Assembly: GCA_023247705.1 (NCBI GenBank)
Contig: JAHFFY010000009.1
Location: forward strand, 1,688-65,687
Reading direction: 5' to 3'
DNA from: Candidatus Omnitrophota bacterium
GTDB lineage: Bacteria > Omnitrophota > Gorgyraeia > Zapsychrales > JAHFFX01
DNA: 64,000 nucleotides
How positions within the stretch are numbered: position 1 is the stretch's first letter; the number at the start of each line of letters is the position of its first letter. The notes beneath the pieces are model-generated. The model made no database searches and was not told the DNA's origin. It saw only the letters and a program-made list of their open reading frames with translations. Shown piece after piece: positions 15,341 to 64,000 of this stretch. A program made the translations under genes and the position numbers.

Positions 15341-15410
15341 TCGTTCGTCAAAGCCCTGTCCCTTTCCCCAATATTCCTTATTTCCACGATGAACATTTTA
15401 TGCTATAAGA

Positions 15411-19966: not shown

Positions 19967-19986
19967 TCTTTATTTAAATCAAATAT

Positions 19987-20015: not shown

Positions 20016-20034
20016 GTTTGCGATAGGACACACG

Positions 20035-20292: not shown

Positions 20293-20702
20293 ACGAGATC
20301 ACCTTTTCGTATAAAACTTACAAAAAAACGCATTACCCCATCATCCCTATCGAAATCACCAATAAACGCACCAAAATCAAAACCAACGCCTACGTTGATT
20401 CCGGCGCTTCATTGTCAGTTTTTTCGATCAAAGAAGCGGTACGGCTGGGCCTGGACCGCCGCAGCGGACGGAAAGCCACGATCACCGTGGGAGACGGAAG
20501 TTTTGTCACGATTCATCTGCACAGGCTTTCGGTCAAAATCGGACACAGCCATCTCAAAGCGACGATCGGGTTTTCTCCAAGACTGAGCGTCAATCTGATC
20601 GGACGGAAAGATATCTTCGAATTTTTTGATATTACCTTCAGCGACAAAGACAAAATCGTTTCGTTTTACCCGCGTAAAGCCTCGATAAAACCGGCGGATT
20701 GA
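20289..20702 (+). CDS. retropepsin-like (retroviral-type) aspartic protease
   Basis: The catalytic motif is AYVDSGASLSVFS (D-S/T-G-A). Downstream is the flap/dimer motif NLIGRKDIFEFF, comparable to ILG.D.L. At 137 aa it is typical of single-domain bacterial retropepsin homologs that act as homodimers. Confidence 0.7.
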   Translation: MNEITFSYKTYKKTHYPIIPIEITNKRTKIKTNAYVDSGASLSVFSIKEAVRLGLDRRSGRKATITVGDGSFVTIHLHRLSVKIGHSHLKATIGFSPRLSVNLIGRKDIFEFFDITFSDKDKIVSFYPRKASIKPAD

Positions 20703-23700
20703 TTTGTTTTTCAAGAAATGGTTCTCGATCAGTCCGGCGACTTTGTCTCTTTCGATCCGGCCAGAAACCACCGCAGCCCAAATCACTATCCTGATCAAAA
20801 ACTCAACAAAAAGATCATAACTTAAAAAATAGATCAAGAGACTACTTCCCATATTCAAAACAGGGATATGTCGCGAAAAGCTCAATTGCGTTCCTGCTGG
20901 TTCTTCAGAGGATCGACTCCGGGGGACGCGCCAAAATTGATGATGTCTTTTTCCTTGGGACGCAAGACCGGGACGATCAGATCGCATCAGCAAGAGCGTT
21001 GCCCCCAAAAGAACAATAAAGAAAAACTCATTGATACCTGCTGACGTTCCAAACGCGATGGTGCGATGGGAATCATCATCTTGTTTTTTTTCTTTTAATC
21101 GCTTTCTTTTTTGTTTTGGCGGACCGAATTGAGGTCTCCCCCGGTCGATTTGTGAAATAACAATCACCGCAGCGATCAATAATAAAACAATAAACGACCA
21201 TCCGGTATGTTCCGTGAAGAAATCCACCAGATCAAAAAAGATTCTTTCAAACGAGATGTCGGTGAAACTTGGGACAAAGCTCATGACAACTTCCTCAGTC
21301 GAACCACTCCTCATTCCTAATTTCACCAATTCCGGTGTATATAACTCTCCCATGCGTGAATAGAAAATATTTTTGATCTCCCAGGGCAGATTGGTTTTTT
21401 CAATAAATTCGTAGGTTTCTTTAAGGCTACGCAGGATTCTTTCCTGGGCCCTCGTCATCCGCGGTGGGGAAAAATTATCGCGGTGATTAAAAACTTTGAT
21501 GAGCTGGGCTGCCCTATATAGAGAAGAACCCGATGCCAGTACCCTGCGCAGATGCGGCACCGCGAAATCCTCCAGCAGCCCCAGGGCGCCGCGTCCGTAT
21601 GGACCACGGTTGAAAAAATAGTATTGATAGGAAGGTTGTTGATTCGTAAAAAAGATCCCCAAGATCAGGAGGATCAATACGGCCGGAGTTGGGACCAGCA
21701 TATTGGCATATAATATTTGCCTTGTTCTTTCGTCTCGATTCGGTTCTTCTATCTGCCTTAAAAGAATCCTTTGCCAATCCGTAAAATCCTCATATCCTTC
21801 TAAAAGCCTCCTGATATCGTCCACGGAAAGATTCGTTTCGCGTAAAACCCGGTGGATCAAGGCCTGGATCCTGATAAAATCCACTTCGGTATGCTCTTCC
21901 CATCGGATCCATTCAGGATGTGCGATATGAAAATATTCCCGGGAACGCTCAGCGAGATTAAAGTGATCGAGCTGTTGCGGATAATTTAAGGAAAGCGCGA
22001 GCAGAACCAAAACAAAGGTATCGACATCGTCGAATTTCGGGTCGGCGATCATTCGTTCGATTATGAATTTCGTGTTGATTCCGTACTGCTGTTCCAAATG
22101 ATTCCGGTCAATAAAAGAATCAAGAAAATCGACGAGGCTTTGCCGGCCTCTCACCATGTCAATCATCTGAGCCAGAAGCTGACCTTTCAACGCGTGAATC
22201 GTGTCCGTAATATTTTCGACCATCCCGATCGAAGGAATTTCTTCGCCTCTTTCCAGCCGGGCATACATCTGGGGGGATAGGCCTGCTTCCTGAGCCACCC
22301 AACCCGATGGCAACCAGAGCGTTAAACGCAACTGGGCCAATTCACGCCCCATGGAAACGGTTGTTTCTCCGTTGATCAGATAACCGATATCGGTCCCGAA
22401 CGCCCATAATCCTCGGATCGAAGTGAATAAGGCAAAATTCTGGATCTGCCAGCTGCGTATCTTATTTAATCCGATCAAATATCCCAGTTGATAATCGCTG
22501 TACCCATTACGCTGTTTCAAACGTTCGACTCTTTCGATAAACAATGATCGCTCAAAGTTGCGAATGTCATCAGGCCCTCCCAATCCCAGCAATAACCAAC
22601 GGACACTCAGATTAAGATAATTGACCAACGATAGAACGCTGGTCCTATAAAGATTAGGGATCCTGCGTTGAGCAGGCAAAACCGCGAGCTGGGATTTAAG
22701 CTGGTAAACCGTCCGGGCCCCGAGGACTCTTTCCTCAAAAAGTTTTGTCCATGAGCTTCCCATGTCCTGTAAACGATCGTTGATCCGCTCCGGAAGATAT
22801 CTCAGACGGTCAAAATAATCCAGAAGCGACGGCCGGGATAAAATGGCAATGGCCTCTTGAATTAAAAAATAGGTGTACGATTTCGAATAGCCTAATGATT
22901 GCACCATTTGATCGATGGTTTTGGGAGCTTCTGAAATTCCTAAATACCCATTGATAAACTTGATCAGCAAAGTAGATTTCAGCATGCCATCGTATCGCCC
23001 ATCGGCCATGCGCGCATAAACATTCTGAATCATTCTGGCCTTAGGGCCATAAATTCGTCCTTCAAGCACGTTTTTCAAGAAAACAATTTCGTCTTTACTA
23101 ATGAATCCTTTCAGCATGGCCTCATCTTCTTGAACCAATCCCCCTAACGCTTCGTTTACTTGTAAATCCAGGGCCATGACCAAACGGACAAGACCGCTGC
23201 CCCGGGAAGGAAACTGTATGGTTAACATCCGTGAGGCAAATTTTGGTTTGACCTCCAGGCGTTGTGCAAGAATTTTGCTGCCGATCCGTTTTCGTCGGGC
23301 AATCGCGCGTAACCGTAACGGAAGAGTTGCGAGATCCGGTTGTTCCATCGTCTCGGATTGAGAAATGATGATATCTTCCATAGGAATTTTGAGATCGATC
23401 AATCTTGCCATCGCGACATTCAAACCGATCGCGATCTTTCTTAAACTTTCGAGTTCCGCGTCACGTCTGCCATTTTCTAGCGCCGGCACAATGCGGTTAT
23501 CAATATCGGCTTGATCGGCTAACTGTTGACGGCCTAATCCTCTTTTTAAACGGACATATCTGATCCGCGCGCCGATGGACTTGACGATTTCCTCCCGGCT
23601 CGGGATCCGGGGATGAGCGTCGAGACGCTGGTCGGGCCTTTTTTCCCAATTCACCTCGGACATCAAGAAAATCATCAATCCTAAGAATAAAATTTCCACC

Positions 23701-26700
23701 CCCAACGCTGGAAATCCGACGACCGCGTAATGCCCTTCGTCATTCGTTCCTTGCAATTGCGCCAATAGGACTTTCTGCCAATCGGTGAGATCTTCGTAGC
23801 CTTCCAAGAGGGTGCGAATATCTTCCAGCGAAAGATGTGTTTCCAAAACAACCCGATCCACCAAATGATGAATTGTTTCTAAATCAATTTCTTCATTTCC
23901 TGGAATCTGGGGTGGAACGGCAAAATTGATATGCACATATTCCGAAGACCGTTCGGCAAGATTATGGTAATCGAGTTCTTGGGGATAATTGAGCGAGAGC
24001 GCCAACAAGAACATCACGAAGGTATCGATGTCTTCAAATTGAGAATCAGCAATCATCCGTTCGATAACGAATTGAGTGTTGATCCCGTATTGTATTTCCA
24101 AATGATTCCTCCGGATAAAATCATCCAGAAATTCGGTCAGACTTTGGTTTTTGCGGACCCGATCAATCATCAGCATTAAAAACTGCCCTTTCAGAGCATG
24201 CATCGTGTCGGTGATTTTCTCGATGATCGCTATGGTCGGCACCTCTTCACCGCGTTCGATGCGGCTATAAACCCACGAAGATATTCCCGATTCCTGGGCA
24301 ACCCAACGTCGCGGAAGCCACAACGATAAACGCAATTGTTCCAGATCACGTCCCATCCCTGCGGTCGTTTCACCTTTGATCAAATATCCGAGATCGGTTT
24401 CGAGTCCCCAAAACGCTTTCGTTGCCGTCAATAAAGCCAACTGCCGGACCGGATGAACTTTAAAATTATCCAAGCCCACAAATCGTCCCAGTTGGCTCGT
24501 TGTGTAACCTTTGCGCGTCTTCAGACGTTCGAGCCGTTCTTCTAACGATGTCGCTTCGACTAACCTCGCGTCTTCCGATGTACCCAACCCTAACAATAAC
24601 CAACGCACATTCACGTCAATGGCATCGGCCAGATCGATCGTTATAGGGAGAAATAAATTATGAACCTTTCGCTGAGCAACAGGAACCCCAAACTGTTCTT
24701 TGAGAAGATAAACGGATCTGTTGTTTGATACAGCCCGATAAAGATCAACCCATTCCATATTTTTTTCTTTTAACCGCAGATCTATCCGATCGGGGATCAA
24801 ACGAAACGCGTTAAAATAATCCAAAATTTCCGGACGGAATAAAACCGCGTAGGCCAGCATCCGCAAACGCTGCACGCGGTGCCGGGAATAACCGGTGGCC
24901 GCAGCAATTTGTGCGAACGATTTCGGGCGTCCGTCCAATCCTAAATATTCACGGACAATCCGCGCCAGGAGTCGCGCGTCAAGCATGTGATCATAGTCTT
25001 CCTTCGACATCCGCTCATAAGCCTGAACCACTTTGCGGGAAAAAGGGCCATAGATTCTTTCTTCCAAAATATTTTTCAATAACATATGTTGTTCTGAGTT
25101 CACAATACGTTCCGGTTGACTTGTCACCGCAGAGATCGAAGCCAAAACCTCAGAAACCTCAGCATCGATCGCGATGATCAGACGGATCAAACCGGTCATA
25201 CGCTCAGGAAAATCCAAGTTAAACAATCGCACCGCCGAAGCTCTTTGAATCTCCAGGCGTTCGGCGAGCTCTTGATAATTCATGCGCTGACGTCTAAAAA
25301 TCGCTAATAGCCTCGCCGGCAAGGTTTGTAAATCGGGTTGAGGCGTAGGCTGTTGCGCGGGAAATTCTTTAAATTCAATCATTGCTTCTTTAACGAGTTT
25401 CAAATCAAGTAAACGCGCCAAAGAAACTTCCATGGCCATGCTTAACTTCATCAAACTTTCAAGCGACGCGTCTCTCTTCCCTTCTTCCAAAGGACCGATG
25501 AGGCCTCCTGATATTTTATATTTTCTTCTTAATTCTGTTCTGGTTAATCCGCGTTCTTCCCGGACATATTGAACCCGGCCACCGATGACGCGCATGATTT
25601 CTTCCCGGTTGGGAATGCGCGGCCGGATGGCCACGCGTTGATGATGTTTTCTATCATCATTAAACTGCGTCATCAGGAAAATCATCACGCCAAAAAAGAT
25701 CCAAGTTATGTCACCCGGTCCGTTGAGCACCGGGAAAGAAAACGCCAATAAACTTTCCGGTGAGTCTGTAGGCCGCCCGAGATGTTCAGGGTTGGCCGTT
25801 TTTTTGAACCGGGAAAGAAACGGATAATCTCTCAAGGCATATACCCATAAGGTGAATAAAACCATGATTTGCCAAAGCAACACGCGCGGTTGAAGCAAAA
25901 ACCCAATAACCAATAACGACGATAGAATTGCAGCCTCCAAAGAAGAAAAGCGGTAAGGAACAAATCGCCGGTCCTTGCGCGGCCACAGGACGTTGAACAA
26001 TTCTTCTCTGTTCTTAAATTGAAAGAGCGAAATCGTCCCTAGCATAAAACTCACGGTGCTCAATCCCAGAAAAATATAATTTTTCGGTTGGGGTAAAACG
26101 AAAGTCAAATAAGACAAAAGAGAAAAAAGATTGATCGAAGCGTGATAAGCGACTGCCGCCACCAATCCCAATCGATAAAAAATATAGCTTAGGAAGAAAG
26201 TGTCCAGCATTCGCAAACTGATCAGAAAATAATCACTCTGCTCATGGAGAATGACAAAAAGAAATGAAATGACGACCGCAGAAATCCCAAAGGCCCACCG
26301 CTGTCCGAGCCGCGATAGAATTTTAACCAAACTTCCCATGGCCACTCCTCGGGCGACGAATTCTTCCGCAATGGCGGCTTGAATGGTTCCCTCGAAACTA
26401 TACGCGAGGATACCAAACCACGAGAAGTCCACCAGCAGCGGAGGTTGATAACTGGCATTTACTTTAAAACGAAGAATCGACCGAATGATCACCGCACCGG
26501 TTAAAAACAAACGCATCAAAATGACCGAATGAAAAGCGATCTTGATCGCATGCAAGAATCCCGGGACCCATTCCTGTGTTCGCACCCATTGCGAACGGAA
26601 AGCGAAGATCAACATCCCTTGGATGAGAATCATTGTCAAGGCTATCTCCAAACCGACGATGACCAAGGACATTTTCGGTTCATCTTGTTTCACCCACGCG

Positions 26701-29700
26701 CTGAAAGATTTCTGCCCTTGATAAAGGATCCTTTCCATGAAGATCTCTTTTCCGGTGGACAATGTTCTTTGCGCCATCATCTCGATGAGATCCAGAGGGA
26801 CTTCAAAAACGTTATATCCCTCCAGCCTTTGCACGGCCTCTTCCTTATCGATGCCGCTTCTTAAATCGCCCACCGGCCTTAAGAAATTTTCCAAATCAGC
26901 ATCGGTTTCCACCTGATGCTTGGGTACGAACCCCACAAACAAGGTCCTGTCGTCAAAGATCAAACGATATAACCGGTAAATGCCCTGGGCCGTATAAACA
27001 TGGTGATAATACAAATCTTTCGACATCAATTTATGATCCGGACGCCTGAGCGCTTCCAGAATCTTTTCAGCCAATCTCCGCCGGAGTTCGGCATTCTTTA
27101 AAATCATGAGTAAATCAAACATGGAAGAATCATCCAGGATAGCGATCTTAGCAATGAACTGCGGAACAACAGCTCCTCCCGGACTCATTGGCCCGTTGAT
27201 CTCCACTGATTCCAGCAAAAATTCGACCCACTCTGCTACGCGCTCGGACACTAACGCGCTTAGGCCGCGCAAGTCGATCGCCAGTTCAATGATGCGTCGT
27301 TCGATGCCTGTATTCTCACCGACAGCCCGAAGATACTCATGATAGGTGCCTTTGAGCAAGGCCTCTTTGATCTCGGTAAGATTTCCCTGTTTTGGAATCG
27401 TAATTTCGCTTAGGTCCAGATTGTTAAACCAATCCAATAAAACCCAGCTGTCGAGTTCCAGGATCAGCAAACTCGCGTCCTCAGCTGAATACGCGGCGGT
27501 TAGAATGTTCTCTAATTCAACCGTCTTTTCTCTATAAAAAGAAATCTCTCGATAATAAACACCCAAACTTGTTTCATTAAAAATTTCCGGATCTAACTCA
27601 ACAACATTGATCCAATAATACAAAGCTTTCTGTTTGTTCCCGATCTTGTGATACGCTTCGGCGAGCTGTTGATCAATTGAAATTGTTCTTTTACCTTGCA
27701 GGACAACGGACTCGAGGTAAGTGATGACCTGAGCCGGATGATCGAGTTTGCTATGAACAAATCCCAAATGTTCATCAAGATCGGGATAATTTTCGTTTAA
27801 GTGTTCGACGCGTTCAAAATCCTCAACGGCGTTCTGGTACTCGCCCAGATATTCATAAGCCAATCCCCGATGGAAATGGCTTTCCATGAGACTCCCGGGA
27901 CCGGACGTCAGGACAGACGGAGCAAGGGCAATGGCCTCGTTAAATTCTTCAATGCCCCATTTCCATTGCTGAATATTCATAAAAGCCATCGCTCTGCGAT
28001 AACGGATCATGAAAGAATCATTGCTCTGTGCATTCATCTGCTCAGGGCTCAACATCATGTCTTCTAAAATACCCACCGCTTGGTTCAAGAGAGGAATCTG
28101 CAAAGACTTTAACCACTCCTTCGCGAGATCGAATATTTGCTTATTCTCCAACCGTTGGCCGTGATTTGCCCGCGCATCCCGAATCCGCAACACCAGTTCC
28201 GGAATACGATCCACGGGAACATAACGGGTCAAATTCGTGACAAATGGCATAAACTTAAGAAACGCGCCACCCTTATCTTCCCAGTTCCTCAAGATGATCT
28301 GTTGAATCATCGACATGAGCGCAACATCGCGGTATGCCTGGGCATCGGGCTGCACCCCATCAAAAAATTGTTTGCGTATCAAAGCCAGACGGACATCAAG
28401 CATATTTTCTCTCAATGGAATCGATTCGGCGGTGATCCCGGGAAACTCAGGTGGGATATATTTTTCTACGCCAGCCCTTTCATATCCCTTAAACGTAATC
28501 ACTTTATTATTATTTCCCGTTAACATCTGTGGGATAAATTCCCCCATGGCGCGCGCTCCATAGTGGTGAATGTATTTGATGGATGCTTCGATCGTCCTTC
28601 TTTGAAGTTCCAAAAACAGATCATCACGGCCATCCAGGAGATAATTATAGGCCCGCTCACTCGCTAAGACCATTCGGCTATAATAGAGACTGACGTCTTC
28701 ATACACCGGACCGATCACGATTCTGATATTCCGATAACCTTCAAGTCTTTTCCCGCGGATGAAATTGAAGAACGCCCGCTCAAACGGATGACGGGGGATC
28801 GTAAAAGCGTTCTTGGTCGAACTTTTTTGATTCTGGCTTTGCCGCCGTTTGTTCTCGGTATCGACCGTCAGCTTGATCCGCTTGACTAAAATGTCATCCG
28901 ATTCATAATCATCCGACAGCAAACGTTCTTTATCCCCTTCTTTGAGCTGTTCTTCATCGATGCTTCCCGTGGCCTGAAGCACGATGACAAAATGCGCTGT
29001 TTTTCCTCCCAATTGGTCAAACATTTGATCGATGGTTTCTCTGGCTTCCTGAAAATCCAATTCCGAATAATAAGAATCATAAATGACCGCCCATCGCAAT
29101 GGATTCTCAACGATATGCACGGAATCAATCGTCTTCTTAAGTCGATTTTGTTCCGATAAGAATGCGTTTAAAAAATCATTGGCGATGCTGCCGTGCAGTC
29201 CTTCGAACAGAACACTCTTCTTCAACGCGTCGATTTGCTTTCCTTTCGAACCCATCGCCAAGATGGGTGTCAAAAGAACCGACAATTCACGGATGTCCCG
29301 GGCAAAATTCTTGGCAAACAAAGCTAGACCGTCCTGATGTCTTTGCCGTTCTTCTTCATCGCGGCTATCTTCGATCTTCTGCGCAAGAATGCGGCTGGTC
29401 ACCTCAATCGCACTTTGAAGGATTAAATTGATCGAATTTCTCTCCGACTCCCGTGAGGAACGTCCTGAACCATTGACCATCATCAAGGACCAAAAACCAA
29501 AACTTAAGATCAACAGAATAACCATTTGATCTATCCCCTCCGTCCCGAGGGCAAATGGAATCGACCAAGCCGATGCAGGCTCATCCGGAAAATCGTCGTG
29601 AGGGAGGGCTCCTTTTTTTTGCGCAGGAGCTCTGGTCTTACTGTCTTTATTGGAGTTTGGTTTCTTTTCCTCGAATCTTTTCTTAGGCGGAGTAGGCCAA

Positions 29701-32700
29701 GAGTATTGACGATCAAAAAACTTTATAAAATTCTTAAGGACATCTTCATACTCCTGGGCCTTCTGAGGATATTCCTGGGCTTTGAGAAGACGGATATAAT
29801 GATTCAAGGCATCTTTAAACCGGCGTTCTAATTCGGACGTTGGATTGGATCCGGGATAATATTTCATCGAGAACAAAGCCGATTCAAAGGCTTCAACGGA
29901 TTGATTCAGTTGTTTTTGATGCAACAAAATTTCGGCCAATAATAAAAGAACATCTTCATCCGATGGATCGTGTTGAAGAGCGACCGAAAGATAATGCGCG
30001 GCGTCTTGCAACACTTGATCTCGGTTCTCTGTCTCGTCACGACCCAATGAATCCAGCCTGGACTTGGCCAATGAAAAAAGTTGGTGAATCACTTCTTCAT
30101 TTAATTTTAAAGCCCAGAAATTCTTATCTATGAACAATCGGCTTTCTTCTCTTAAAGCATCACCCACAATGGCCAGCACTCTATTCTGCGGATCTTTCTC
30201 TATCGCCTTATGAATGTACTTTAAAAAAATTTTACTATATTCCGAATCCATCCATTTCAACGATACGATGATCTGAGCACGACTAAACTCATTTTCACTC
30301 TTCTTGGTTATAAATCCCGGAGACGGCAACAACGATTCAACCGGCCATTCCTGCACATGCTGAGAAAGCCCCTGTTGATTCACCCGGTAAGTTAAGACCC
30401 GTTTATAAATACGAAATCTTTCCTCAGGGGCCGGATCCACAGCAACCGCCAAGTTCACATCAGTAGAAGATACCGCTTTGACCTGAAGTTCGGTATAGGT
30501 AAGCTGTGGATATTGTGTCATTAAAAATTTGATCCAATAGCCCAGTTGTCGATCATTAGCCGGATCAAATACATCCGGCCGTTTTTCTAGAAGCTCGGGT
30601 CTTAAACCGGGCAGGATATCCCTCAGGAATACAAAAATTTCATTATTCGATAACAACAGATCGTTGCTCATGTCCTCTTGCGGATTCTCCATTAAGAGTT
30701 GAGCCGTAAAGACCGCATCGCGAGAAAACTGAACAGCAGAATCACTCCGGGCCAAGCGATCAGAAGGAGATAAGACCAGATTACTCAAAAAGAAAATAAG
30801 AAATAAGAATATAAATCTATTCCAACCGATGGACCGATCTCTGATTGAATATCGCAATCCATCCGCAAGTTTTAGAAATACTCCCCCAATAAATACGACT
30901 CCCAACACAAACAACACGACGACATTGCTATTCAACGACGGGAACAGAATCAATTTAAAATTCATCAAATCGCCTGAAGCGGAATCTTCCTCCACATCTT
31001 GATAATTTGAGAAACGGCCTCGATTGTTGCGTCCGTCGTCTTTTTTCTTTAGAAAGAATTCGTCCGAACTTTGTAATTGAAGCGGTTTCTCATGGTCAAA
31101 ACGCGATAACGGCTGATCCTGGACTTCTTTGTTGACCACGACCGCAATCGAGGACAGATTTTTTTCCCCTTGATCAACATAATTGATCAATTGCAGAACC
31201 AGCCGCTGCAATCCTTTATACGTCGTCGCATTGGCGTGATTGACCTCGGCATTGCCTTCCATCTCAACATACGTTGCTTCCGGGATGGAAAGCCCATTAT
31301 TCATTGTGATAATTCCATCGGTTCCCGGTGTCCCATAAAATCGACCGAGTAAAGATAAATGTGTCGACTCAACGGGATTTCCGGATTTTGTCTTGGTCGA
31401 AATAATAACTCTCAATGGACGGTTCTTTTGGAGTGAAAACTTCTGTTGCAGTGTACGAATAAACCGTTTATTGTCTTCGCCGAACAGGAAGGAACCCAAA
31501 AATGTACGCGCGGCCTCTTTCCCCCACCAATAGGTTCGAAATTCTTCCCACCAGCCTGAAATCCAATTTGTGGAACCCTGTGTCAGGCTGAACGCGGGAT
31601 TGATCAAAATATAGGCTAAAACTTCTTCCCGGTGATCCAGAGACATCAAGCCGGCGGCAACCCCTCCAAAACTATTGCCTACCACGACAAAACGCGCATG
31701 GGGATTCTCCTGTTTAAGCTGATCCAAAACGTCGTTGGCTGTCTTAACATCTTGATTGATCGTTCCGGTAAAATTCTGTTTCAAATTCCTATCTTCAGCC
31801 AACGGAACACTATTGATCTCATGAAACTGACTTAAATAAAATGCAAGTCCCTTCTCTTTGGAGAAATAACCATCGTCGTATTTAGCGCCGACGTTTAACT
31901 CTTCCTTCAACCAGGTTATAAAAGCATTCGAAGGCTCAAGGATCATCCGTCCCGGGAAAAAAACAACAATCGTTTTCGATTCCCGGATTTCTTCTCCCTC
32001 CAATGTAACCGGTTTACTCCAGGAAATGAGCGGAAGATTTTCGGAAAATTTTTTAATTCCGAATTTCATATGGGCGAACATCCGGCTCTGGCCGGCTTTG
32101 AGACCAACGAGGACAGTTTCAAACCAGGCATAACCGGTTATGATCTTTTGCACGGTTGTTACAAACCAGCGCCGTAAAGCCATTGTCCAAGACGGTGCGT
32201 CAAAATGCACTGGAGCCTCGGGGATATAATTGTAAATCTCGGGGGTTTGATGTGATGCCGGGGGGAATGGATTACTGGGGGGCCGCATTTCAGGGATCAG
32301 ATAAGGGGTAGTCAAAAAATATAAAGCCAGATATCCAACCAACGCCCGTTTGAAACGCCCTGCCTTGCGGTCAATGGATAATTTTGATTGTTGACCTAAC
32401 GGGACCGGTGGTGAACGGGGGAAATGCGATTTCCCATTCGCATGGCCATTTCCGTTTTTGAAATGATTCTGAATCCATCTTTTTCCATTCGCATGACCGT
32501 TTCTTTCCGGTGATGCGCCGGATGTCCAAGTATTGATTTTAAAATAAGCTTTTCTTTTATACGGTTCATTGTTCCGACGCCACCATCGATCGGACCGCCC
32601 CCGGCCTCTGTGGTCAGAAACAATCCCAACGATCAACATCGTCAATACAATCCCGATATTAAAGACGACCGCATCGGCATTGATTGCCAAGCCAATGACG

Positions 32701-50700: not shown

Positions 50701-53700
50701 ACACGTAATGTGGCATAGGACAACGCATCTTCGATCGCCGGTTTCATCCGCGTTTTAAATCCATGAGGTCTCAACATTTGTATGGCTGACCAGAAGTCAT
50801 CCAGACTTTTAAACGGGATGTCGGTATCTTGCCTCTTCTCTCTGGCTTCTTTAATAATATAGTAAGCGGTGTTCCAGGTTAATCCGACGTCAGGATGAGT
50901 CATATCAAAAAGATCAGCGTCATTTAAAAACGCCAATTGGCCTTCCCGTGTATTTGGATAGATGATATAAAGTTCGGTGACCGGTTCGGGTTCCGGCACC
51001 GTTCCTTCGGCCAAACGGTGGAGATAAACAACGAATTGCCGGATCAATTCCTGTTCGACCCGATGATAGATGAGGATATGGCTGACCTTCTGTTGGATGT
51101 CCATATTGGACGACCGGATAAAAGAGAAAAGCTCCTCGGCCAGAAACCTTGTTTCCATCGCCGGCGAAGCGCCCCATGCCTGACTCAGCCATGCCGCGAA
51201 ATCCATGGCCTTCGCGCTGGAAATTCGCTGAATGACGCGATAACGGACATCGACCGATACGTTTTGCAACGGTTTCGTTCTGATCACTTCCTGAATACGC
51301 GCTTTCAATTGTTCATTGGTCAAATCAAACATCCGTCCCCAGAAATCGTCCATCCGTTTCCAAAGTTGCTCAAGCTCGGTGATGGGGCCGACTTTCATCG
51401 TGCGTTCAATGATGTCGATTTCCTCCCGAGTAAATTCATGGAGGACCAAATCAAAATGGTCCGCCTGGTTAAAGAATTTCACGGTGGACAATTGCTGTTG
51501 TTCATCCTGGAAGGATCTATATAAAGGACTTCGCTGATAGGCCACCCAAAGCGTCATGAACTCTTTATCTAATTGTGCAATAAACCGGCTCAATCGGGCA
51601 TCACGCATGATGTCCGCGGTCCCGTCCCATTTGCCGCGCTCTTGAAGAATCAGTGACTCAAACGCGTCGCTGCGATCTTTAATCCGACGATTCCGTTCCG
51701 ATGCAAATTCCGGACGTAATGCGCTTAAAAAGTCCCGTGTCTGTTCATAACTCAAATAAAATTGCTCCGGTGTTTGTTGAACAAAGAGAATGTCCTCGGC
51801 TTTGAAAAATTCGTCTTCCTGCTCTTCCCAGATCTTTACTACGGTATCAAGGCGTTCCCGGATGTTATCATCGAGATAGGTTTTGCCAGCCTGTAAAGCG
51901 GCCAATTTTACGGCAAAATCTTCGTAATTCTTTTCTCTCCGATCGATCTGGTCGTAATTGACAACATGTTCAATACGATCAACCTCAAACTCAATGTCTC
52001 GCCCTAAGAAAACCTCCAGTGTTTTTAAAACGTCGCGGTTCCATTCTTCCTCGAAATATTGCGGCTCTGATTCATGTTCTGGCCGTGATGGTCGAACGCG
52101 TCTTGGCCGGCGCAGACGCAGTTCTTGCGGTTTCAGCATTTCTAAAGCGCCCTCATTGAGCGGCCGCACTTTGACATACACGGTCACATGATAAGGCAAC
52201 GCGGTCATCTGACGGATCTGTTGGAGCATCTGCGGACCTTCGTCCCTTAAAATACTTTCCGCGCTTTCCCGGGATAAACGATTCCGATGGATATAATGCT
52301 GGGCCGCGATCTCATAACCGCCGATCTCGCGCAACATCCGGTCAAAATGACTTCCGATCAATGGCGCGCTCCTCGGAGATCCGACAATTAACACCGGATG
52401 ATCCTTAATATGTTCTTCTGTGATCGTCGTGCCGGCCGGCAACACGTCATATCCGGCATACAGCGCCTCCAAAGTCTTCAAGGCTTCTTTCATTTCGCGC
52501 GGGGTCAATAAATCCCAGACATAACTCGCCACGATCGCTTTAACGACATTCGCCTGATCCTGCCCTAAAAATCTTCTCATCTTATTTAAAACATCTTGGG
52601 TCTCGCTGATATCGGCGAGGATCTTATTGGGGTTGGGGGCGATTCCGCTGATCCCCTCATGCTGTTCAATATCGATCATATAATCTGACATCTCAAGCGG
52701 CCTGCCCTTTCGTCTTAAAACCTGTCTTAAGACCCGCCAGGCAATACTGACATTCGCTCCGACATCCAGCATAAACGGTGTTCCATCGATGTGCTCCGCG
52801 ATCCATTCGGCGATCCAAAGATTGGTATGATAAGAGGAGCGGCGGCGTTCCTGTTCGGTCAAATCAGGGATATCGGTTTTCCCCCAGCGCATACGGTCGT
52901 CGCGTAATAAATTCAATGTTCGGCGGATTTTCTCGTGCAGGTTGATAAAAAAGATCTGTTCGGTCTCCTCAACCACTTCACCGTTTCTGATCTTCTCTAA
53001 TAACGCGGTGAGCCGATCAAAATCATCCGCGGTGATCGCCACCAATTCTTTTCCGGCGTTTCTGCGTTCTTGATACAATTCTTCAGCCAATTCTAGACGG
53101 GTGACCATGCCCATGGCAACCCCGAGTGGAAATCCCGGCATCCTTCGTTGCCACACCCTTTCCATTTCTGTTTTGACCTGCTTGTAAGAGGCGATCTGCT
53201 CGTCTCCCAATTGATCTCGGCCCCAGACAGGTAAATTCCAGCTGCGTTCGGATTCAGGGACCAAACGATTCATAAAAGCCTGCATCTTTCTCATCTCGCG
53301 CAAGAGATCGCGTGCTTCCTTGATTTGCTGCAATTTTTGAGATCTCAACAAAATCCGTCGGGCATCGTGTTTTGCAAATCCGCCGAGGATGACCCGGATA
53401 TCCTGCGGTCCGACATAAATTTCCAATCCACTGGCCAGATTCACCACCTCATAAATCCACTGCGGATTATTTCCAAACTCATCGTGCCGATCTCCAGCCG
53501 TATTGGTCAAACCCGTCGCGCTGATATTCGGCTGAGTGGCGACAAGCAAACTCCTGATTATCCATCCTTCCTGTAGTCTGGCCCATTGCGCTTCGAGATC
53601 CTCTTCAAGATCTTCACCGGATAACTCGATCATGCGACGTTTTTTATCCTCGGTTGTGATCGAAACCCTTCTGTGCAGATCCACGAGCACCTCGCTGAAG

Positions 53701-56700
53701 CGCACATCCCATTCGCCGAACAGTTCCCGTTGCAGGGCCCGTAAAAGATAGTGATGCGCCATAGTCCCACGTCCCTCTGACTGTAAGTCCTTCGCCCGGC
53801 GGGCCAAGACGCGGCTGTCCCGGCGTCTCAGTTCTAAAATAGATTGTTCAGTCCCGATGTGCACGATGAGATCCATTCGCGCGCGCTGTTCGTTTAATTC
53901 CAAAATCAGTCGATGGGAATCAGAAATCTGTTCAGATCCCATGTATTCTCCGAGTTCGTGGAAATACGATAACGCCCGGATCATCGGTTCCGGATGGTTG
54001 ACTAATTTGTGATATAACGCGATTGTTTGTTTGTGAGGGAGGGCCACACCCAACAGATCAGCGATCAAAATTCGGAAGGAATAAATCTTTTCCAATCCCG
54101 GCGGTGCGTGGAAGAGTTGATATAAGGCGCTCAATAAATCATAGGCGTGGGATTCTTCCCGCGCCAGGATTCCCAGCAACGTTAATAAAATTTTTTCTAA
54201 ATCCACGGAAATTTCATCCAGAGGATTAGCAAATGGTCGGTTGGGTTCGGCGTTTTTGATGATTCGCAAATGTGGCCTGCCGTTTTTATGTTCAATCCCG
54301 ATGGCACGAGCCTGGTTCCCTAATTGTCCAAATTCCTCCGGTGTTTCTCCTGGACCTTTCTCTTTGTGTTCTGATCCTGAACTCGATTGATCCGGCAAAT
54401 CTGTTGTTTCAGATCCTTCTTTTCTCTTCTCGGCAATGAGCTTTCTGATTTTTTCTAATACCTCTTGGGTGGAAATTTTTCCACTCTTTACGTCTTCCGG
54501 AGGAGCGATACGATCAAGTTCTCGCATCCCCAACTCTCCGGTGAGAGACCGATACTCATTGACCGCCTCGAGCAAATCCAACACGGATTGATTGGCCATG
54601 CCTTCCGGTAAACTAAATCGCATTTCGTTTGATGATGTATTAAAAATAACCCCTGGCCTTCTGACCGGTTGCTGTTGAGGCTGTTGGGCCGGAGTCCTTT
54701 TCCATTGCTCGATGGCAAATAAACGGATATGGTCTGCGATCTTAGTCTCGTCGTTGTTTCTAAGGTTAAATCGCACGCCTTTCGTTTGAAAATACTGTCT
54801 TAAATCAGCGCGATTCTGTACAATCATCAATTCTTCCAAGACCCGTTGGCTATTCTTAACGGCCCGTCTGTTCTTTCCATCCTCACTGAGTTCCAATTCA
54901 AAAGCTCTTAACCAGTCGATCAATTCCTGAATCTCCTTCGCGAATGGTTTAATTTGACTGACACGGTTGATCAATTCTTCCCTCAATGCGGATGTGATTT
55001 GCGGGAATGGATTCACCCAAGAATTTTGGATCATCTCGACCATCTGACGATAATTTTGTCTTTCTCCATAGATTTCTAAAAGCAAATGCGTGATGGCAGG
55101 CAAGGGAATTTGTTTGATCGTTATGAACGGATCTGGAATGTCTCTATCCGGGTTATAATCCGGTAAAATACGATAACGTAAAAACTGAAGCTCCAATAAC
55201 GATTGAATCATAATGACCGGTTCCAGATGCAATACAGCTGCCTCTTCTGTTCGGCCGGTTCTAAACATTTCCTGAATGAGTTTCGCCTCTAAAGCGATAT
55301 AAACAGACATCGTGTCTTTTTGTCCGGTTGCCCCCAAAGATCTGGCCATGACCGGAATATTCATCCGCTTTAACTGACTATAAAGTCCGATGCCCACATC
55401 GAATCCTATAAAAGCGATCCTCTTCGTCGGGTACTCTTGATAAAGTTGGACCAACCGCTCCAAGATCTGACGTTTTCGGACGATCCGGGCCTTCGCGGAG
55501 TATATGATCTCCTGAGTAAAATAATTGATTCCTTCTCTCAAATGTCCTGATTTAAGCGCAGCGCGGACTAAACGGTTTTGCCTTACCCCTTGGGAATCCC
55601 AATGATTCCGCGGAATCCCCAACGTATAAATCTTTTTCCCTCTTCCGGCGAGAAGTTCAAATAAAAATTTCAGGCTGTTTTTAAGATCTAACGCGTCCTG
55701 GTTAGAAACTTCCATGTCAGTCATAAGCTCAGCCAATTTCGATCGATCTTGAGATAACTCATCCAGAAATTCCTGCTGGAGGTGCATTTCTTCGATGATG
55801 ACAATATCCGCCGTTGCGATCATCTGATTTAACTCTTCTGCGACTTGATTAAAATGTTCCATGTCACTTAAATAAAGTTTTATTCCCGGGGATTGCTCGA
55901 ATCGTTGCTGCCGGGTTTGAATGATTTCGGGTGGTGTTCTCCTGGTGGATGCAACGATCCGTTGTCTTACCGGAACTTGCGGACTATTCGTTACGTCTGT
56001 TGACTCTGGTTCTTGAACAAGCCCTTCCTCTTCGACCGTTTCAGTTAGTTCATTAGTCGTCAATTCTGAAGGCGGTGTCCGTGTTACATTAGCTTGTGCT
56101 AAGGAAACATCCTGTCCGGAAAAAAGGTTCGTTTGTTCTGCAGACTCGACGTCTTCCGGTCCGATATGATCAATCGACAAAACTTCTTCTTGAGTTGGCT
56201 GCGCCTGACTCGCCATCGCCATCATATTCAAAGCCCCGCGTAAAGCACGCATCGCATCGGTTAACGTCTCAATCCCTAACCCGATCATCCATTCTTCGAC
56301 TCTTTGTTGCGCTCGTAGAATTCCTTGCTCGGTCTTCAATGAAGCTAATTTTAATTCCGAAACGATATTAAATAATTCCCGAATCTGCTCGGAGGAAAGG
56401 GATCGCATGATGTTGGAAATCAGACCTGACCAGGTATAAACCATTAAATATCGACCTCCATTCCATAATTTGTCCACGGCATCATAAACAACGCTCTCTT
56501 CTATTAAACGGTCTATTTCTTGCGGTGTGAGATAAGAAGAAATCTGATGTTGCATTATTCTCTCAACAGGACTCAACAATCTCACGATATCTTCCGGTGC
56601 TTGAAGAACGATGCCCCTATATTCCGAAGGCATTTCTTTTTCTCCTCCGATCCGGTTATCCATGCGCAGGCTAATGACGACCCGGTTTCGGTTGGTCTTC

Positions 56701-59700
56701 AGTAACGCCGGGATCTGCTGACCAAAAATCTGCTTATTCATTGAACGCAATCCTTGACCAGCCGACTCCGTCATTCTGAAAATATTCCTTCGATACAGCT
56801 CATAATCCCCCCGATCTTCGGAGGCCTCCAAAAAGGCGTCTGCGATTAAATGACTAATCGATGAAAGCGGCACGCCGGGTTCCAGCGGCTGTAATTCCAG
56901 CATTTGATGGTCCAGCTGAATGTTATAACCTTGCTGCGTCACCTTCTCATGCAGATATTCAAACAATGCCATACGAAATTCCGCTTCGCGGGTAGTCCCT
57001 TGCAAAGCTATATTTCGTTGCACAGTCGCCCTGACCTCAGCAAAGGTTTGCTCTCGATGCCGTATTCGATGGGAAATCTGCCGGGAAGATCTGTTTTCTC
57101 CCTCGATCGAAGCCCGGATAAAATCAATCGTGGGGATAAAATAAGCGTCTCTCTCTCCGGTAACCCTTTTCAAATTGCGATGACGAGACAATCCTAATTC
57201 ATCGACAGCGCTTCGGGGGATCAAAATAGTTTCCTGCTGATACCTATTATCTCGTAACTGACTAAAAATCTCTTTAACCGAGACAACCTGTTCATTGAAA
57301 CGCGGGCGATCGACCTCCAGAAAGATAACGACCTCCGTATCTTTTCGATCTGGGACCAACCGATCAATCAAAACATCCAACTGACTGCGGACACGATCAA
57401 AATCTTTGGCCCATTGCATCCCCGTGTAGATCACACTCCAACGCGGCCTGAGCACTTCCATCTTTCTCAAGATCAACTGCGGCACTTGATCGCGCGTTTC
57501 ATTGCTCAATAAAGCTGTTAAAAATAAATGATTCCTCTTGGCGTTGTTGGACGGCTTACTCATGGCCTCGTGGATCATCGTCGCCGCGGCCGTCACCGTC
57601 AGACCTTCATAATTGCGCGCTAATGTTACAGCCGCATCGCTCAAACGCGCTTGGGTTTTTAATTCTTCGATCGAAGCGGTGATGGCGAGATGAACCAATT
57701 CTTCTGCATCGTTCGTGGGTTGATGGGAACTGGACGCCGGCAAATCTTCCTGTGCGGTTGAAATCTCTTGGACGGCCATAGGGATTTGTGTTACATCCTG
57801 ATACTCAGGATTTTCTTCGTCGGTCAAGAGCCCCGGAATCCGCCCTTTATTCTCAATCAACAATCTGATCCCGGAAGTCACTTCGGCATTCAGATATTCA
57901 ATCACAGCCTCTTCTCCATAAAGATTGAACGCGGCCACGACCGCATGACGGTCATTGCTGGCCAAAAAATTTCCTCTTTGGGCAAAAACCGATCGGCGCA
58001 TGTAAATTCTCTCGACTTCTCTGGCCGTAAACCAATGTTGTGCGACAAAATTTCTAATTTCTCTAATAAAAAGACTTTGTCCTTTGGATGTGACAGCATC
58101 TTCTAATTGCCGTTGAGTCAGAAAATCTCTCAGATCTTGCCTGTTTTGAACCACAAGAAATTCTCCGAGACCTTCCAAAGGCATCGCTTCAATGTTCAAT
58201 CGATCAAGATCAACGTCTTCTTGATTCTGGAATAAGGAATGGAATCTCATCGCCAATTTCCTGCGCAACTCCGGGGTAATTGGGCGCGTCGGCCAATCTT
58301 GTGCCGCGACGATATTCTCGATCGTTTGACTTAAACTCACTCTCCCTGAATAGTGATCAACCAAGCGTAAAGCGATATCAGGAAGAGCGAGGCGTCGGAT
58401 CGCTTTAATTTCACTTTGCATATCCGCTGACCGGTTATAACTTCTTGAGCCGCGCCAATTACGCCATAGATCAGCTAAAAATTTTTGAGCCGCCTCAAGA
58501 GAAGAGATGGAAACATCTTGGGTCTTAAACATTGCTTTGTTTATCTTAACGGCATTGATCATGGACCTGTCAAAATGCGGTTTGTTTTCCAACGATTGGA
58601 AAACGACCGGAACGTTCCTTTTCTTGAGCTGGACGTAAATATTAAGATTAAAATAAACACCGATGACCAAAATCTTCTGTCCTTGATTTTGCTCATAAAG
58701 GCCCTGTAAGAAATTAATCGATTCCAGGTGAGTTTCGTATTCTTCCCGGATAATCGCTTTCCAGGCCTCGATCGAATGTTTCAATCCTTCCCAAAATCTA
58801 TTTTGTTCGAAGCTTTTCTTGGCCGAATTATATCGTTCAACACTCCGGCGATGGTGCGGGTTATCGATGTACTTGGTGTTAATGCTATGGAACCTCTTGC
58901 GGATTCCTTCCACGCCGACTTCATAAAGCAGGCGCATCCATTTTTGGATCGCTTGACCGCTGGGGGTGTTGACTTTAAGGAATGTCCTGTTGACAGCTTG
59001 CTCGAGGGTGATCTTTCTTTGCAGCAGCAAATTAAAAATTTCATTATCCGTCCTGGACAGATCCATGACGATCCGATCCGCTTCCTTCATCGCATTGAGC
59101 AGGATGGTCCGATGTCGATCGATATTTCGTTCATCAAGGAATTGGAAACTAACCCCCGCGATAAGCTTGCGCGCAGATGGTGAAGAAGGAGTAGTAACTG
59201 AAACCACATCCTCATAGATCGCATCAACGATTTCTTCCGTCCCTGGGGCCGCGGCCGGTATTTGGGCTAACGTGGTCGCATCAATCTCCGGCCAATATTG
59301 ATCCACCATTCCACGAATGTGATTGCGCAGCGGATAGCGCGTGCCGCCGGAAACATAACCGAAAATATGTTTAAAGCGTTCGTTCAGGAAATGATTAAGA
59401 TCCGCGGTCTCCCACATCACAAGCAATTCTTCAAATTCTTCCAAGGAAAGTTTTGTGATGGGTAAACCACTGAAGCGTTCCAGTTCCAACCGCATGGCCT
59501 CGGTCACCGGCTGGACGGGCGAATTCAGGGTTGTTTTGAGGATTTGAAATAATTGATGCGCGGTCAACCGATCGCGATAATGCTCAAGAATCCTGCGCGC
59601 CATATAAGGAAGCGGCAGGGCGGCGATAACGTCATTCTCTTCAGGAAAGTTCTCTTCTACGCCGTAATACCATAACACGGCCATTAATGAACGGGTGATG

Positions 59701-62700
59701 CCCTGTAGTCCGATGGTAATTTGCTCAATCTCTATCCCCTGATCAATTTGGGCAACCACCTCATTAAAGAATAGGTCATGATAATCCGGCCGGATCGGAT
59801 TTTCTTCAGATGGATTAAGATATTCCACCGTCGTATTGATCCCTGAGTTATTTAAAAGATAAACCAGATGATCAAGCCCGGCGATGTTTTGAATGATCGC
59901 GACTTTCCCATCCTGGGCTTGACGAAAATATTGCACCAGTGACTCAACGATCGCGATATTATCTCTTGAAGAAATATCCACGGCTAATTTTTCCGCCTCT
60001 AAATAAAACCGAATGCCTGACAAGAATCTATTCTGACGAAACTCCTCACGCGCTTTGTCAAGACGAAGGCTATATTCACGATCATGCGAGTTACCGCCTT
60101 CCTCCCCGAGTATCACCTTAACGCCTCCGTTAATCATCTTGCCTTTGCCGTAGGCAAATCTTAACAAGTACCGCGCCTTACCGATTTCCACACTCTCTTT
60201 AATACTGTTAGGAACTGTTTCTATTTCACTCAATAAACTTTCCAAAGATTCTCTGGCATTGAAAGCGCGCTCGAATATTGAATCGTATTTTTCGGTGATA
60301 TCCGTAAGAATGACATCATATTCCTCAACGATCGTTTCAACACCCGCAGCATATCGCTCCAAGAATTCCGGACGACGGCGATTGGAACTGACGTAGACAT
60401 TAACGGTAAATTGAGTTGAGGTTGTTCCTGCGGATTCACCGGACTTTTGGTCTGCTTGCGTTGTGGTCGCTGATTCTTGGATGGTAACCGTTTCTCCCTC
60501 ATCTTGAATCTGTTCAACTTCTAACGTTGTTTGTACCGCCGAAAGATCCGTGATTGCGGCATCGGCCTCAGGCGTTGATGGTGTTTCTTCTAAATTGCCG
60601 CGTACGGCGTCATTGGATGAAGTCGAATCGGCAATTTCCGAAATCGCTCCCCAATACCGGTTGACCATCGCCCGGATTTCCCGACGCAGCGGATGACGGA
60701 TCTTTCCGGAAACAAAACCGAACACGAACCGGTGCTGATCATTCAGGAAATGACTCAAATCCGGCGTGTCCCACATGACCAGTAATTCCTCAAATTGCTC
60801 AAGCGTCAATTTTTCCAAAGCAAAACCTGCAAGACGACTTAATTCCAATTGCATTTCCCGCGTGACCGGAACAGGCGGGGCCGTTAAGGTCGATCTGAGC
60901 ACGTCAAAAAATTGACCCAATGTCAGCCGTCCACGGAAAAGATCAAGGATCCGAAGCGCGATATAAGGAAGCGGCAGGTGTTGAATAATTTCGTATTCAC
61001 GCGGATCATACGGTTCCTGACTATGGAACCATAAAATGACCAACAAAGATCGGGCCACGGCCAGAAGACTGACTTCGATATCTTTAATTTCTTTACCGGC
61101 CAAGGCCTCGCGCAGCGTCGCATTAATCAGGTTATCAGCTTGGTCGCCCTGGGTTTCCTGTTCCCGCTCGTCGGTCAGATATTCCACCTCGATCTCAATG
61201 CCTTGTCGCTTGAGAAGCTCCCGCAGATGCTCGGCGCCCATCATATCTCGCATGATCGCGATCCGCGCTTCCGGAAATACCTCGAAATGCTGCATGATGA
61301 TTTCAACATTCGTTTGATTTGTTTGCATCGTTGTCCTTGCCGAAAACCGTTGCGACTCAATCAGGCTGCGTATCCCGGCCAAGAAACGATTTTGCTCGAA
61401 TTCCGCCTCCGGCGATTGGAAATCGCGGCTATAGGCAATCGCATCCGGTGTACTGCTCGAATTAATGACGATCGCGCGGATACCGCCGACCAGCTTCTTT
61501 CCCCGGCCATAACTTTGTCTCAGAAGCGTTTGTCCCTTCACGGTATAAGATGGAAAACTCGATTTCGAAACATATTCCTTAATTAAATCTTCGATCGATC
61601 CTTGTCCTTGCGAAGCCCAGGCAAATATTTCGTCTGATTCAGAAAGGATATCAGTAACAATCAAATCGTAATTCTCAATAATGGCATCAATGGCCTGATT
61701 ATAAATATCGGCGCTGACCGGACTTTTACTGTCGGAGGTTATGTAGACTTTGACTTTCCGTTGAGGAGCGATAACATCCGGAGACTGATCTTTTTTTGAG
61801 TCGAGATCCGAACCCTTTTCGGCTTGCTCTGTCAAAAATTTGGTCACCACCCCTGAAATATTCTGTTCCCCTTCAACCGGTTCTTGGGTTTCTTGACTTG
61901 GGGCCGGTTGTTCAATGACCTTATAAAGATATTCGGCGATAAAATTCTCAATAAATCGCGCGATCGCGTCGCGTTCAGCGCCGTTATTTCTGATCAGGAA
62001 CCGTGTCAGGTTCTTTTGCTGGAAGAACGTCCGCAGGTCACTGCCGCGTTCGATCAACAGCAACCGTCCAAAATCTTCCAGACTTAAGTCCCGCAAATCC
62101 ATCGTCAAACCTAATCGCGCTTTGATCTCTGATTCAAACGCGCGCATAAGACCGATTGAAACCGGTTGAAGAGGGCTTTGCGACAGCTTGAACATATCTT
62201 CCGCGATTGATTTGGGCGTCACCTTTTCCCTCGACCATTCAAATACTTGACGCTGAATATAAATGTAAGATAATGTTCTCTCGCGAATGACTTTAACGAT
62301 GATCCCATTGATCGACTGCCCATTGATATCAATATCCACCACATTCATTTGTCCCCATCCGTGCAGCATGGCACTCATAAAGGCGCGGAACACATTGATC
62401 CGCACAACATCCAAAGACTTCTGGTGCCGCATTTGGGACAACAACCGAAGGATCATCAGATCATCCAATTGTTGATACCGTTTTAATAAAATCGTCTCTT
62501 CAAACGTAATATTTTCTTTCCTCAATTCCTGGACAACAAAAAATCCCGGCACAATATCATCCAGGATCACAATCGATCGGTCCGCGTAGATGAGTAATTG
62601 TTCATTGATCCCGACCACAAAAGAATCCAGAATGACTTTCTCTTCTTCATAAACCTCGATCTGCCGTTCCAGATAATGTCTCATCGCAAGCGCGGTATCC

Positions 62701-64000: not shown

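Follow-up and report, generated by a model that had tools for sequence, protein, structure and literature searches.

The 64,000-nucleotide stretch of DNA analyzed here (the window) comes from contig JAHFFY010000009.1 of a Candidatus Omnitrophota bacterium and is dominated by one giant gene. On the minus strand a reading frame without any stop runs from 63998 to 20418, giving 14,527 sense codons before a TGA at 20415-20417, while the longest other stop-free run, counting all six frames, has 1,109 codons. The ATG-initiated open reading frame (ORF) of 14,497 amino acids (aa) at 20415..63908, which had been described in an earlier sequence-only reading, was recovered exactly; its first Met is residue 31 of the open frame, with 30 sense codons between it and the window edge. 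Residues of the giant protein are numbered with codon 63998-63996 as residue 1. Stops make up 5.4-5.7% of the codons in the other two minus-strand frames, and at that rate the probability of a 14,527-codon run arising by chance is about 1e-353. The claim that such a frame is beyond chance is thus borne out.

The coding character of the frame is the same along its whole length. The G+C contents of the three codon positions (GC1/GC2/GC3) are about 0.53/0.36/0.50 and are constant over ten successive 1,500-codon blocks. Six segments of equal length also resemble each other in relative synonymous codon usage, with correlations of 0.84-0.92, and this includes the comparisons with the segment that has been assembled independently. 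The latter is found in a short-read ENA contig of 29.4 kb (ERZ27280021:k141_6301103), which matches window positions 8155-27711 over 19,557 bases with one mismatch. This mismatch, at 11892 (A in the window, C in the ENA contig), is inside a 732-aa ORF and outside the giant gene, and the 3' 7.3 kb of the giant gene is carried by the ENA contig with no mismatch. The ENA contig ends at window position 27711, within the region encoding tetratricopeptide repeats (TPRs; around residue 12,095), and this end may be a break of the assembly graph at repeats.

No long near-identical DNA repeats that would be able to mislead an assembler were found in the giant gene. The DNA of the repeat copies described below is at most 73-85% identical, over 31-219 nt, and their protein sequences are 20-68% identical. 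The proportion of synonymous differences (pS) between copies is 0.70-0.77, which is saturated, while the proportion of nonsynonymous differences (pN) is only 0.20-0.44, indicating that the protein has been under purifying selection since the duplications. Curated domain models, too, find their matches in this frame, with intact catalytic motifs in the domains inspected for them. The uniform composition, the lack of collapse-prone repeats, and the absence of Cys throughout also argue against a chimera. The frame is one genuine, uninterrupted protein-coding gene and not a chance frame.

The gene runs on upstream of the window, as had been proposed earlier. In a hidden Markov model of the first repeat family, repeat A, the first copy begins at residue 2 but at profile position 14 of 301, and the ATG at 63908 would sit about 30 residues further inside this module. 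The window edge thus interrupts the first repeat-A copy, and the gene starts further upstream, past 64000. No exact match to a 38-nt sequence taken from the end of the window was found in the genome or metagenome contig collections. Protein look-ups with MutL, MutS, and a 101-aa ORF recovered only the 29-kb ENA contig, which ends inside the giant gene. Extension of the contig, as suggested in the sequence-only reading, therefore gave nothing past 64000, while it did confirm the 3' 7.3 kb.

The giant protein contains no Cys. The codons TGT and TGC are used zero times in 14,527 codons, while the same triplets occur 458 and 475 times in the other two minus-strand frames. The eleven neighboring ORFs have a Cys content of 0.5-1.4%, and at their frequency about 140 Cys residues would be expected; the probability of finding none is about 1e-61. 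Robustness against nonsense mutations was considered as a cause of the missing codons. This could be ruled out: codons one step from a stop constitute 35.0% of the giant gene and 34.9% of its neighbors, TGG is used 215 times, and TAT and TAC are used at normal frequencies. As near-stop codons are not avoided, the selection must be against Cys as an amino acid. The exclusion acts at the amino-acid level and on every part of the chain, the enzyme-like domains included.

The protein can be divided into an N-terminal arm and a C-terminal part that is rich in hydrophobic segments (Table 1). The N-terminal part, at least 6,100 residues, is built from two helical modules that were duplicated in tandem long ago and have since diverged strongly. 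Residues 1 to about 6,100 contain one marginal hydrophobic segment only, and this region gave no sequence match in Pfam, NCBIfam, or PDB. Repeat A and repeat B are separated by unannotated sequence. Structure prediction on these two repeat modules, another of the checks proposed earlier, gave a confident result for repeat B and a middling one for repeat A. The AlphaFold2 (AF2) model of repeat A is all-helical, and its fold matches are uninformative. Residues 2159-2587 (56238-57524) resemble residues 11609-11979 (28062-29174) with an E-value of about 1e-5 over about 400 aa. This likeness represents a long-range internal duplication across 9,000 residues and joins the arm to the segment preceding the TPRs.

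When the ten internal copies of repeat B were used as the sole alignment, AF2 returned a model with a predicted local distance difference test (pLDDT) score of 90.2 and a predicted template modeling (pTM) score of 0.82. A confident fold obtained from internal copies only implies that the sequence is co-varying and structurally constrained. The model matches the tandem helix-hairpin-helix (HhH) domains of ComEA and TEFM, and each module has an additional helical half of about 90 aa. At the sequence level the match to HhH families is not significant, the best being HHH_3 with an E-value of 0.038 in one of the ten copies, and no significant match was returned by profile searches of PDB with the alignments of repeats A and B. 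The copies do not conserve the G-hydrophobic-G hairpins. Nine of them are acidic, with a net charge of -1 to -10 per copy, and the tenth has a net charge of +1. The predicted fold of repeat B can thus be regarded as established, DNA binding not. The module is expressible and can be tested for binding.

In the C-terminal 8,400 residues, about 27 hydrophobic helices string together domains of kinds that are normally separate small proteins. All but one of the hydrophobic segments are found within residues 6175-14413. One of the embedded domains is a sugar-type dehydrogenase of the Gfo/Idh/MocA family, with matches to PF01408 (5e-18, 66 bits), PF22725 (2e-10, 41 bits), PDB entry 3c1a (E 3e-18), and iolG-like proteins (7e-23). 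This domain is complete, and both GAGRFG and VEKP are present, placing it within the family at the domain level. The α/β-hydrolase core has a nucleophile elbow, GNSFG, at residue 10774. The CPBP domain matches PF02517 with an E-value of 3.5e-6 (27.7 bits against a gathering score of 22.4) and is MroQ-like. All three family motifs are present (EEFVAR at residue 12545, FVILH at 12581, and HASIN at 12609), so that it too can be assigned to its family at the domain level. The catalytic motifs are thus intact in the dehydrogenase, the hydrolase, and the protease, which were the three domains checked. The region of the putative methyltransferase alone gave no sequence match in PDB.

There are at least eight helix-turn-helix (HTH) units in the protein, comprising the cluster at residues 6969-7126 and four XRE-type units in repeat C. 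The cluster also matches Cbp1-like, IS1 HTH, sigma-70 region 4, and Tfx families, and it sits in a strongly basic stretch (residues 7001-7500, net charge +39). The two copies of repeat C are 47% identical overall and 68% at best, with a pN of 0.36 against a pS of 0.72. Each copy contains two XRE-type HTH domains and has a strong hydrophobic helix at its end. Curated families cover about 10% of the chain in Pfam and NCBIfam searches, in line with the earlier statement that almost nothing of it belongs to characterized families.

Table 1. Features of the giant gene and of its 3' end, in window coordinates
Feature	Position	Strand	Residues	Remarks
Giant ORF	20415..63998	-		14,527 sense codons + TGA; 5' end cut by window edge; no Cys codon
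Repeat-A zone	54693..63995	-	2-3102	Six diverged copies of an orphan all-alpha module of ~300 aa
Repeat-A copies		-	2-303, 383-694, 821-1119, 1274-1572, 1683-1992, 2775-3102	First copy cut by window edge
Repeat-B array	46071..51500	-	4167-5976	Ten tandem modules of ~166-190 aa; predicted (HhH)2-like fold
Membrane-threaded zone (predicted)	20760..45476	-	6175-14413	~27 hydrophobic segments, mostly single helices 150-900 aa apart
CheR-type S-adenosylmethionine (SAM)-dependent methyltransferase	43722..44039	-	6654-6759	PF01739, E 7.7e-7, 29.2 bits (gathering 27)
HTH cluster	42621..43094	-	6969-7126	HTH_23, HTH_3, HTH_28
Two homologous ~155-aa modules	37518..38621	-		Residues 8460-8827; bounded by strong hydrophobic helices at residues 8460, 8638, 8809
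Gfo/Idh/MocA NAD(P)-dependent dehydrogenase	34161..35069	-	9644-9946	N- and C-terminal parts
α/β-hydrolase core	31464..31754	-	10749-10845	Hydrolase_4 5.7e-7, Abhydrolase_1 3.8e-6
TPR-containing stretch	27519..30008	-		TPR units at residues 11331-11375 and 11998-12160
CPBP/Rce1-like intramembrane glutamic protease	25860..26663	-	12446-12713	Six hydrophobic helices
Repeat C	21639..25739	-	12754-13439, 13433-14120	Two copies of ~690 aa
C-terminal end	20418..21203	-	14266-14527	Three hydrophobic helices; basic tail of ~120 aa
Terminator-like hairpin and T-rich run	20378..20403			Minus strand; 12 nt after the stop; consensus match only

Homologues of the giant gene were searched for in several collections. 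The N-terminal 1,200 aa, the C-terminal 1,774 aa, and a repeat-B profile gave no homologue in a word-indexed database of 5.8 billion clusters, and neither did a repeat-A profile in a full HMMER search of 1.84 billion representatives. Nor was any homologue found for the N-terminal 1,200 aa in JGI metagenome contigs or any match for repeat B in viral contigs; the copies of repeat A have diverged too far to yield patterns for the latter search. Even the 2,431-aa fragment called on the ENA contig is not present in exactly this form in the protein collection. Fragments of giants truncated by contig ends thus seem to be under-sampled, and these negatives are weaker than they look. The search for homologous giant ORFs, also suggested in the sequence-only reading, accordingly returned none from the searched collections and none beside the mutS-mutL pair of the nearest relative, in collections that under-sample such genes.

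The giant ORF converges on mutL (18155-19966, plus strand), which lies after mutS (15411-18059, plus strand). MutS is 61% identical to that of a Candidatus Omnitrophota metagenome-assembled genome (MAG), MAG246 (JBFMEN010000052.1), all others being at most 45% identical. MutL is 53% identical to the protein encoded on the same MAG246 contig, with all others at 39% or below. The comparison set contained one genome per GTDB species, and the placement rests on these two markers. They indicate that the host is affiliated with Omnitrophota and is without a close sequenced relative in the GTDB species-representative collection. The mutS-mutL pair is adjacent and co-oriented also in MAG246 (locus positions 10001-14528). 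No giant gene or homologous sequence was found downstream of the pair there, where the genes are of ordinary size.

The 20 kb downstream of the giant gene encode MutL, MutS, a coiled-coil protein, spermidine-synthase-like membrane proteins, CstA, and a MORN protein. A 101-aa ORF (19987-20292, plus strand) occupies part of the 448 nt that separate the giant gene from mutL. It is also called on the ENA contig and has no family match; a sigma-70-like promoter consensus overlaps its start. A 419-aa ORF (13562-14821, minus strand) is found upstream of mutS and divergent from it. It shows weak SMC-like (coiled-coil) similarity, and residues 1-77 match a sequence located upstream of the MAG246 mutS at 38%. 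Three further ORFs, 1262-4591 (plus strand), 6055-8550 (minus strand), and 10854-13052 (minus strand), encode proteins of 1,109, 831, and 732 aa, each with a weak spermidine-synthase/aminopropyltransferase-like domain in a long unannotated sequence. The 732-aa protein passes the cut-off of the NCBIfam family 'fused MFS/spermidine synthase' (42.3 against 40 bits). BLASTP among the three proteins at an E-value of 1e-5 gave no pair. The G+C content is 0.36-0.41 in window positions 1-14000 and 0.45-0.51 in 14000-64000. The synonymous codon usage of the giant gene is nearer to that of the low-GC genes (r 0.73-0.79) than to that of mutS and mutL (r 0.48-0.61). Scans of the 64-kb window for tRNA and tmRNA genes, and for Rfam families reaching the gathering score, came back empty.

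The reading that is considered probable, and held with good confidence, is that the window contains the 3' 43.6 kb of a single Omnitrophota gene encoding a modular, Cys-free megaprotein of more than 14,527 aa that is threaded through the inner membrane and belongs to a known class of giants. For any specific biochemical role the confidence is much lower. The hydrophobic helices would fix the polypeptide in the cytoplasmic membrane, and the anchored chain would then act as one scaffold holding enzymatic and binding activities at the envelope. The long helical-repeat arm would bind partners, and in this phylum it might plausibly serve in contact with a host or prey cell, be it for attachment or for exploitation.

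Several observations weigh against this picture of a membrane-threaded scaffold. The membrane segments were called from hydropathy alone, as 19-residue stretches with a mean Kyte-Doolittle value of 1.6 or more. The second assembly covers only the last 7.3 kb of the gene, and the other 36 kb are supported by internal consistency. The 5' end, and thus any signal peptide or SecA-like domain, is outside the window. No homologue that would show the architecture in another genome was found, and genes for secretion, pili, or glycoside hydrolases were not found in the downstream flank, which is the one inside the window. A further difficulty is that homologous modules are parted by single hydrophobic helices, at residues 12757, 13426, and 14100 for repeat C and at 8460, 8638, and 8809 for the 155-aa modules. 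With a simple alternating topology, copies of the same module, the XRE-type HTH domains included, would end up on opposite sides of the membrane. By textbook topology, homologous modules with single-helix spacing cannot all face one side, and this is a general problem for giants. It may be that some of the hydrophobic helices do not span the membrane, that the modules work on both sides, or that the scaffold picture is incomplete. The topology was also analyzed by the positive-inside rule, where the charges of the flanks give no self-consistent alternation, and no side has been assigned.

A possible, though rather unlikely, alternative is that the protein is an exported coat, tether, or adhesin, with most of the chain and especially the arm free of transmembrane (TM) helices outside the cytoplasm, touching the host or prey. 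It overlaps with the membrane-threaded scaffold and differs only in which side holds most of the mass. The absence of Cys would then be explained by the chain crossing the membrane unfolded and afterwards working outside the cytoplasm. Total exclusion of Cys is indeed a pattern described for exported proteins, and certain bacteria are documented to use it as a strategy for such proteins (Daniels et al., 2010, PMC2823432). Some of the matched Gfo/Idh/MocA relatives are periplasmic glycoside 3-dehydrogenases (BT_2158/2159 families), and the dockerin-type giants share the combination of a TM-free N-terminal part and C-terminal TM anchors (West-Roberts et al., 2023). However, no dockerin, discoidin, Ig-like, lectin, or RTX match was found in the protein, the arm is all-helical while known adhesins are typically β-rich, and a cytoplasmic location is typical of HTH, SAM-methyltransferase, and NAD-dependent domains. 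With the N-terminus beyond the window, there is no signal peptide to assess.

The Cys exclusion most likely reflects a need for threading or translocation, together with function in the absence of stray disulfides or thiol chemistry. A more far-reaching proposal, put forward here as tentative and with low confidence, is that a Cys-free composition is a functional signature. Either the whole megaprotein would be exported or displayed on the outside of the cytoplasm, as a 'cytoplasm-on-a-string' that is brought to the envelope or a host cell, or a Cys-free composition would be a design rule in Omnitrophota that enables translation, threading, and folding of megadalton chains. The chain does include normally cytoplasmic domains, three of them with intact motifs, while the SAM methyltransferase and the XRE-type HTH units are domain matches only. 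The absence of Cys is not mentioned in West-Roberts et al. (2023), Nielsen & Lui (2026), Seymour et al. (2023), or a 2024 survey of huge proteins. If the proposal is true, Cys content would be a simple sequence criterion that separates functional classes of giants and predicts their location, and if the absence of Cys is common to other giants it would constrain where and how such proteins are assembled.

It is doubtful that the protein is a membrane-to-DNA tether or regulator array, in which the HTH units and the ten (HhH)2 modules would bind nucleic acid, either the cell's own nucleoid or DNA under uptake. The number of HTH units, with the cluster in the +39 stretch and the four XRE-type units in repeat C, speaks for such a protein, as does the ComEA/TEFM tandem HhH fold of repeat B. 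However, repeat B is acidic and without the G-hydrophobic-G hairpins that contact the DNA phosphate in canonical HhH motifs, and at the sequence level its similarity to HhH families falls short of significance (E 0.04). An XRE-type HTH beside a TM helix can be protein-binding, and the RodZ-type HTH_25 is among the matches. A simple topology would also put the HTH copies on both sides of the membrane.

Somewhat less probable still is a polyprotein, i.e., a translationally fused operon whose precursor product is cleaved into many individual proteins, membrane-bound as well as soluble, for instance by its own CPBP protease or serine hydrolase. The embedded domains are of kinds that are usually separate small proteins, and among those with intact motifs is an intramembrane protease that could process the chain itself, as well as a hydrolase with a GxSxG motif. 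The CPBP proteases characterized so far, however, are known for short C-terminal or peptide substrates. The module borders show no recurrent motif for a linker or for cleavage, and the repeat arms (A and B) resemble a single unbroken solenoid-like array. The same idea has been raised for giants with C39 or S8 peptidase domains (West-Roberts et al., 2023), but for the giant ORF of Velamenicoccus archaeovorus, to which peptides have been mapped, processing was not demonstrated (PMC10066038).

An assembly artefact, i.e., a chimeric join or a collapsed repeat that keeps one frame open, is very improbable: the window's own contig is absent from the searched collections and the only independent contig stops in the TPR region, but a chance open frame is excluded, composition, codon usage, and absence of Cys are uniform along the whole length, and the tandem repeat arrays are orderly and too diverged in DNA for easy collapse, making collapse or mis-joining through the repeats unlikely.

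The membrane-threaded megaprotein can be compared with several known systems. With the tandem HhH proteins ComEA and TEFM, repeat B shares the fold only; there is no significant sequence match, the GhG hairpins are lost, and the modules are acidic. Ten tandem HhH copies are not known for ComEA. The RTX/type I-secreted adhesins (LapA, SiiE, MpIBP) are like the giant protein in being very long and repetitive, and they are also poor in or free of Cys. They consist, however, of β-rich Ig-like repeats with a C-terminal RTX part and have no TM helices, while the repeats modeled here are helical, and Pfam and NCBIfam gave no match to Ig-like repeats or GGxGxD nonapeptide repeats. Of nonribosomal peptide synthetases and polyketide synthases, no condensation, adenylation, carrier, ketosynthase, or acyltransferase domains were detected by Pfam and NCBIfam. 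The dockerin-type giants (West-Roberts et al., 2023) similarly have a long TM-free N-terminal part with TM helices towards the C-terminus. Here, however, the arm is all-helical, and dockerin (PF00404), TSP3, discoidin, and other carbohydrate-binding or adhesion domains had no Pfam match at an E-value of 0.01 or below in the whole protein.

The closest likeness is to the giants of Omnitrophota, namely the protein of V. archaeovorus, the 'Archaeovorins' (West-Roberts et al., 2023), and class 1 of Nielsen & Lui (2026; bioRxiv 10.64898/2026.06.07.730766). ORFs of more than 20 kb are found in most classes of this phylum (Seymour et al., 2023; PMC10066038). For the V. archaeovorus protein of 39,678 aa, 42 TM helices are predicted, and peptides derived from it increase in cells that are attached (PMC10066038). 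Giants of up to 85,804 aa with many TM regions, TPRs, and domains resembling metabolic enzymes have been described, 'most' of them with a divergent SecA DEAD or preprotein-binding domain (West-Roberts et al., 2023). Nielsen & Lui (2026) report 5,761 Omnitrophota proteins of at least 10,000 aa, the largest being 147,155 aa, and 80% of the giants are sequence singletons at 30% identity. In their catalogue of 916 proteins, 94% have TM helices or signal peptides, and the proteins of at least 10,000 aa average 22 helices. The domains are drawn from pools of methyltransferases, oxidoreductases, peptidases, and TPR/HEAT scaffolds, and the repeats are ancient rather than recent. The view that a protein of more than 14,500 aa is at the extreme of known sizes was thus overstated.

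The likeness to these giants proposed in the sequence-only reading has held up, MutS and MutL being nearest to the Candidatus Omnitrophota MAG by a wide margin. Besides the phylum, as judged from these two proteins, the shared features are a single ORF of more than 10,000 aa, a hydrophobic helix about every 300-500 aa of the anchored part (about 27 here against the published mean of 22), a few divergent domains from the same pools (methyltransferase, oxidoreductase, peptidase, hydrolase, and TPR), poor conservation, internal repeats that are ancient and diverged, and the status as a sequence singleton. There are also differences. In the visible 14,500 aa, no SecA_DEAD domain, C39 or S8 peptidase, glycosyltransferase, dockerin, or sugar-metabolism cluster was detected; for SecA_DEAD there was no Pfam or NCBIfam match in the visible 14,527 aa, and the N-terminal part beyond the window could carry one. 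Genes for type II/IV secretion, pili, or glycoside hydrolases flank 13 of the 14 largest published giants, which is a tendency and not a strict criterion, while the visible flank here consists of mutS-mutL and polyamine-type genes. The ten-fold (HhH)2 array, the eight or more HTH units, and the complete lack of Cys also set the protein apart.

The giant protein nevertheless belongs to the published Omnitrophota class of TM-rich multi-enzyme and regulatory proteins and is not a new kind. Giant genes make up a sizeable share of the small Omnitrophota genomes and are thought to mediate a host-dependent or predatory lifestyle. Thousands of such giants are known, and the present case adds little to the size record. 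Compared with them it stands out not by its size, but by having no recognizable relatives, by the topology puzzle, by the total absence of Cys, and by its confidently modeled (HhH)2 arm.

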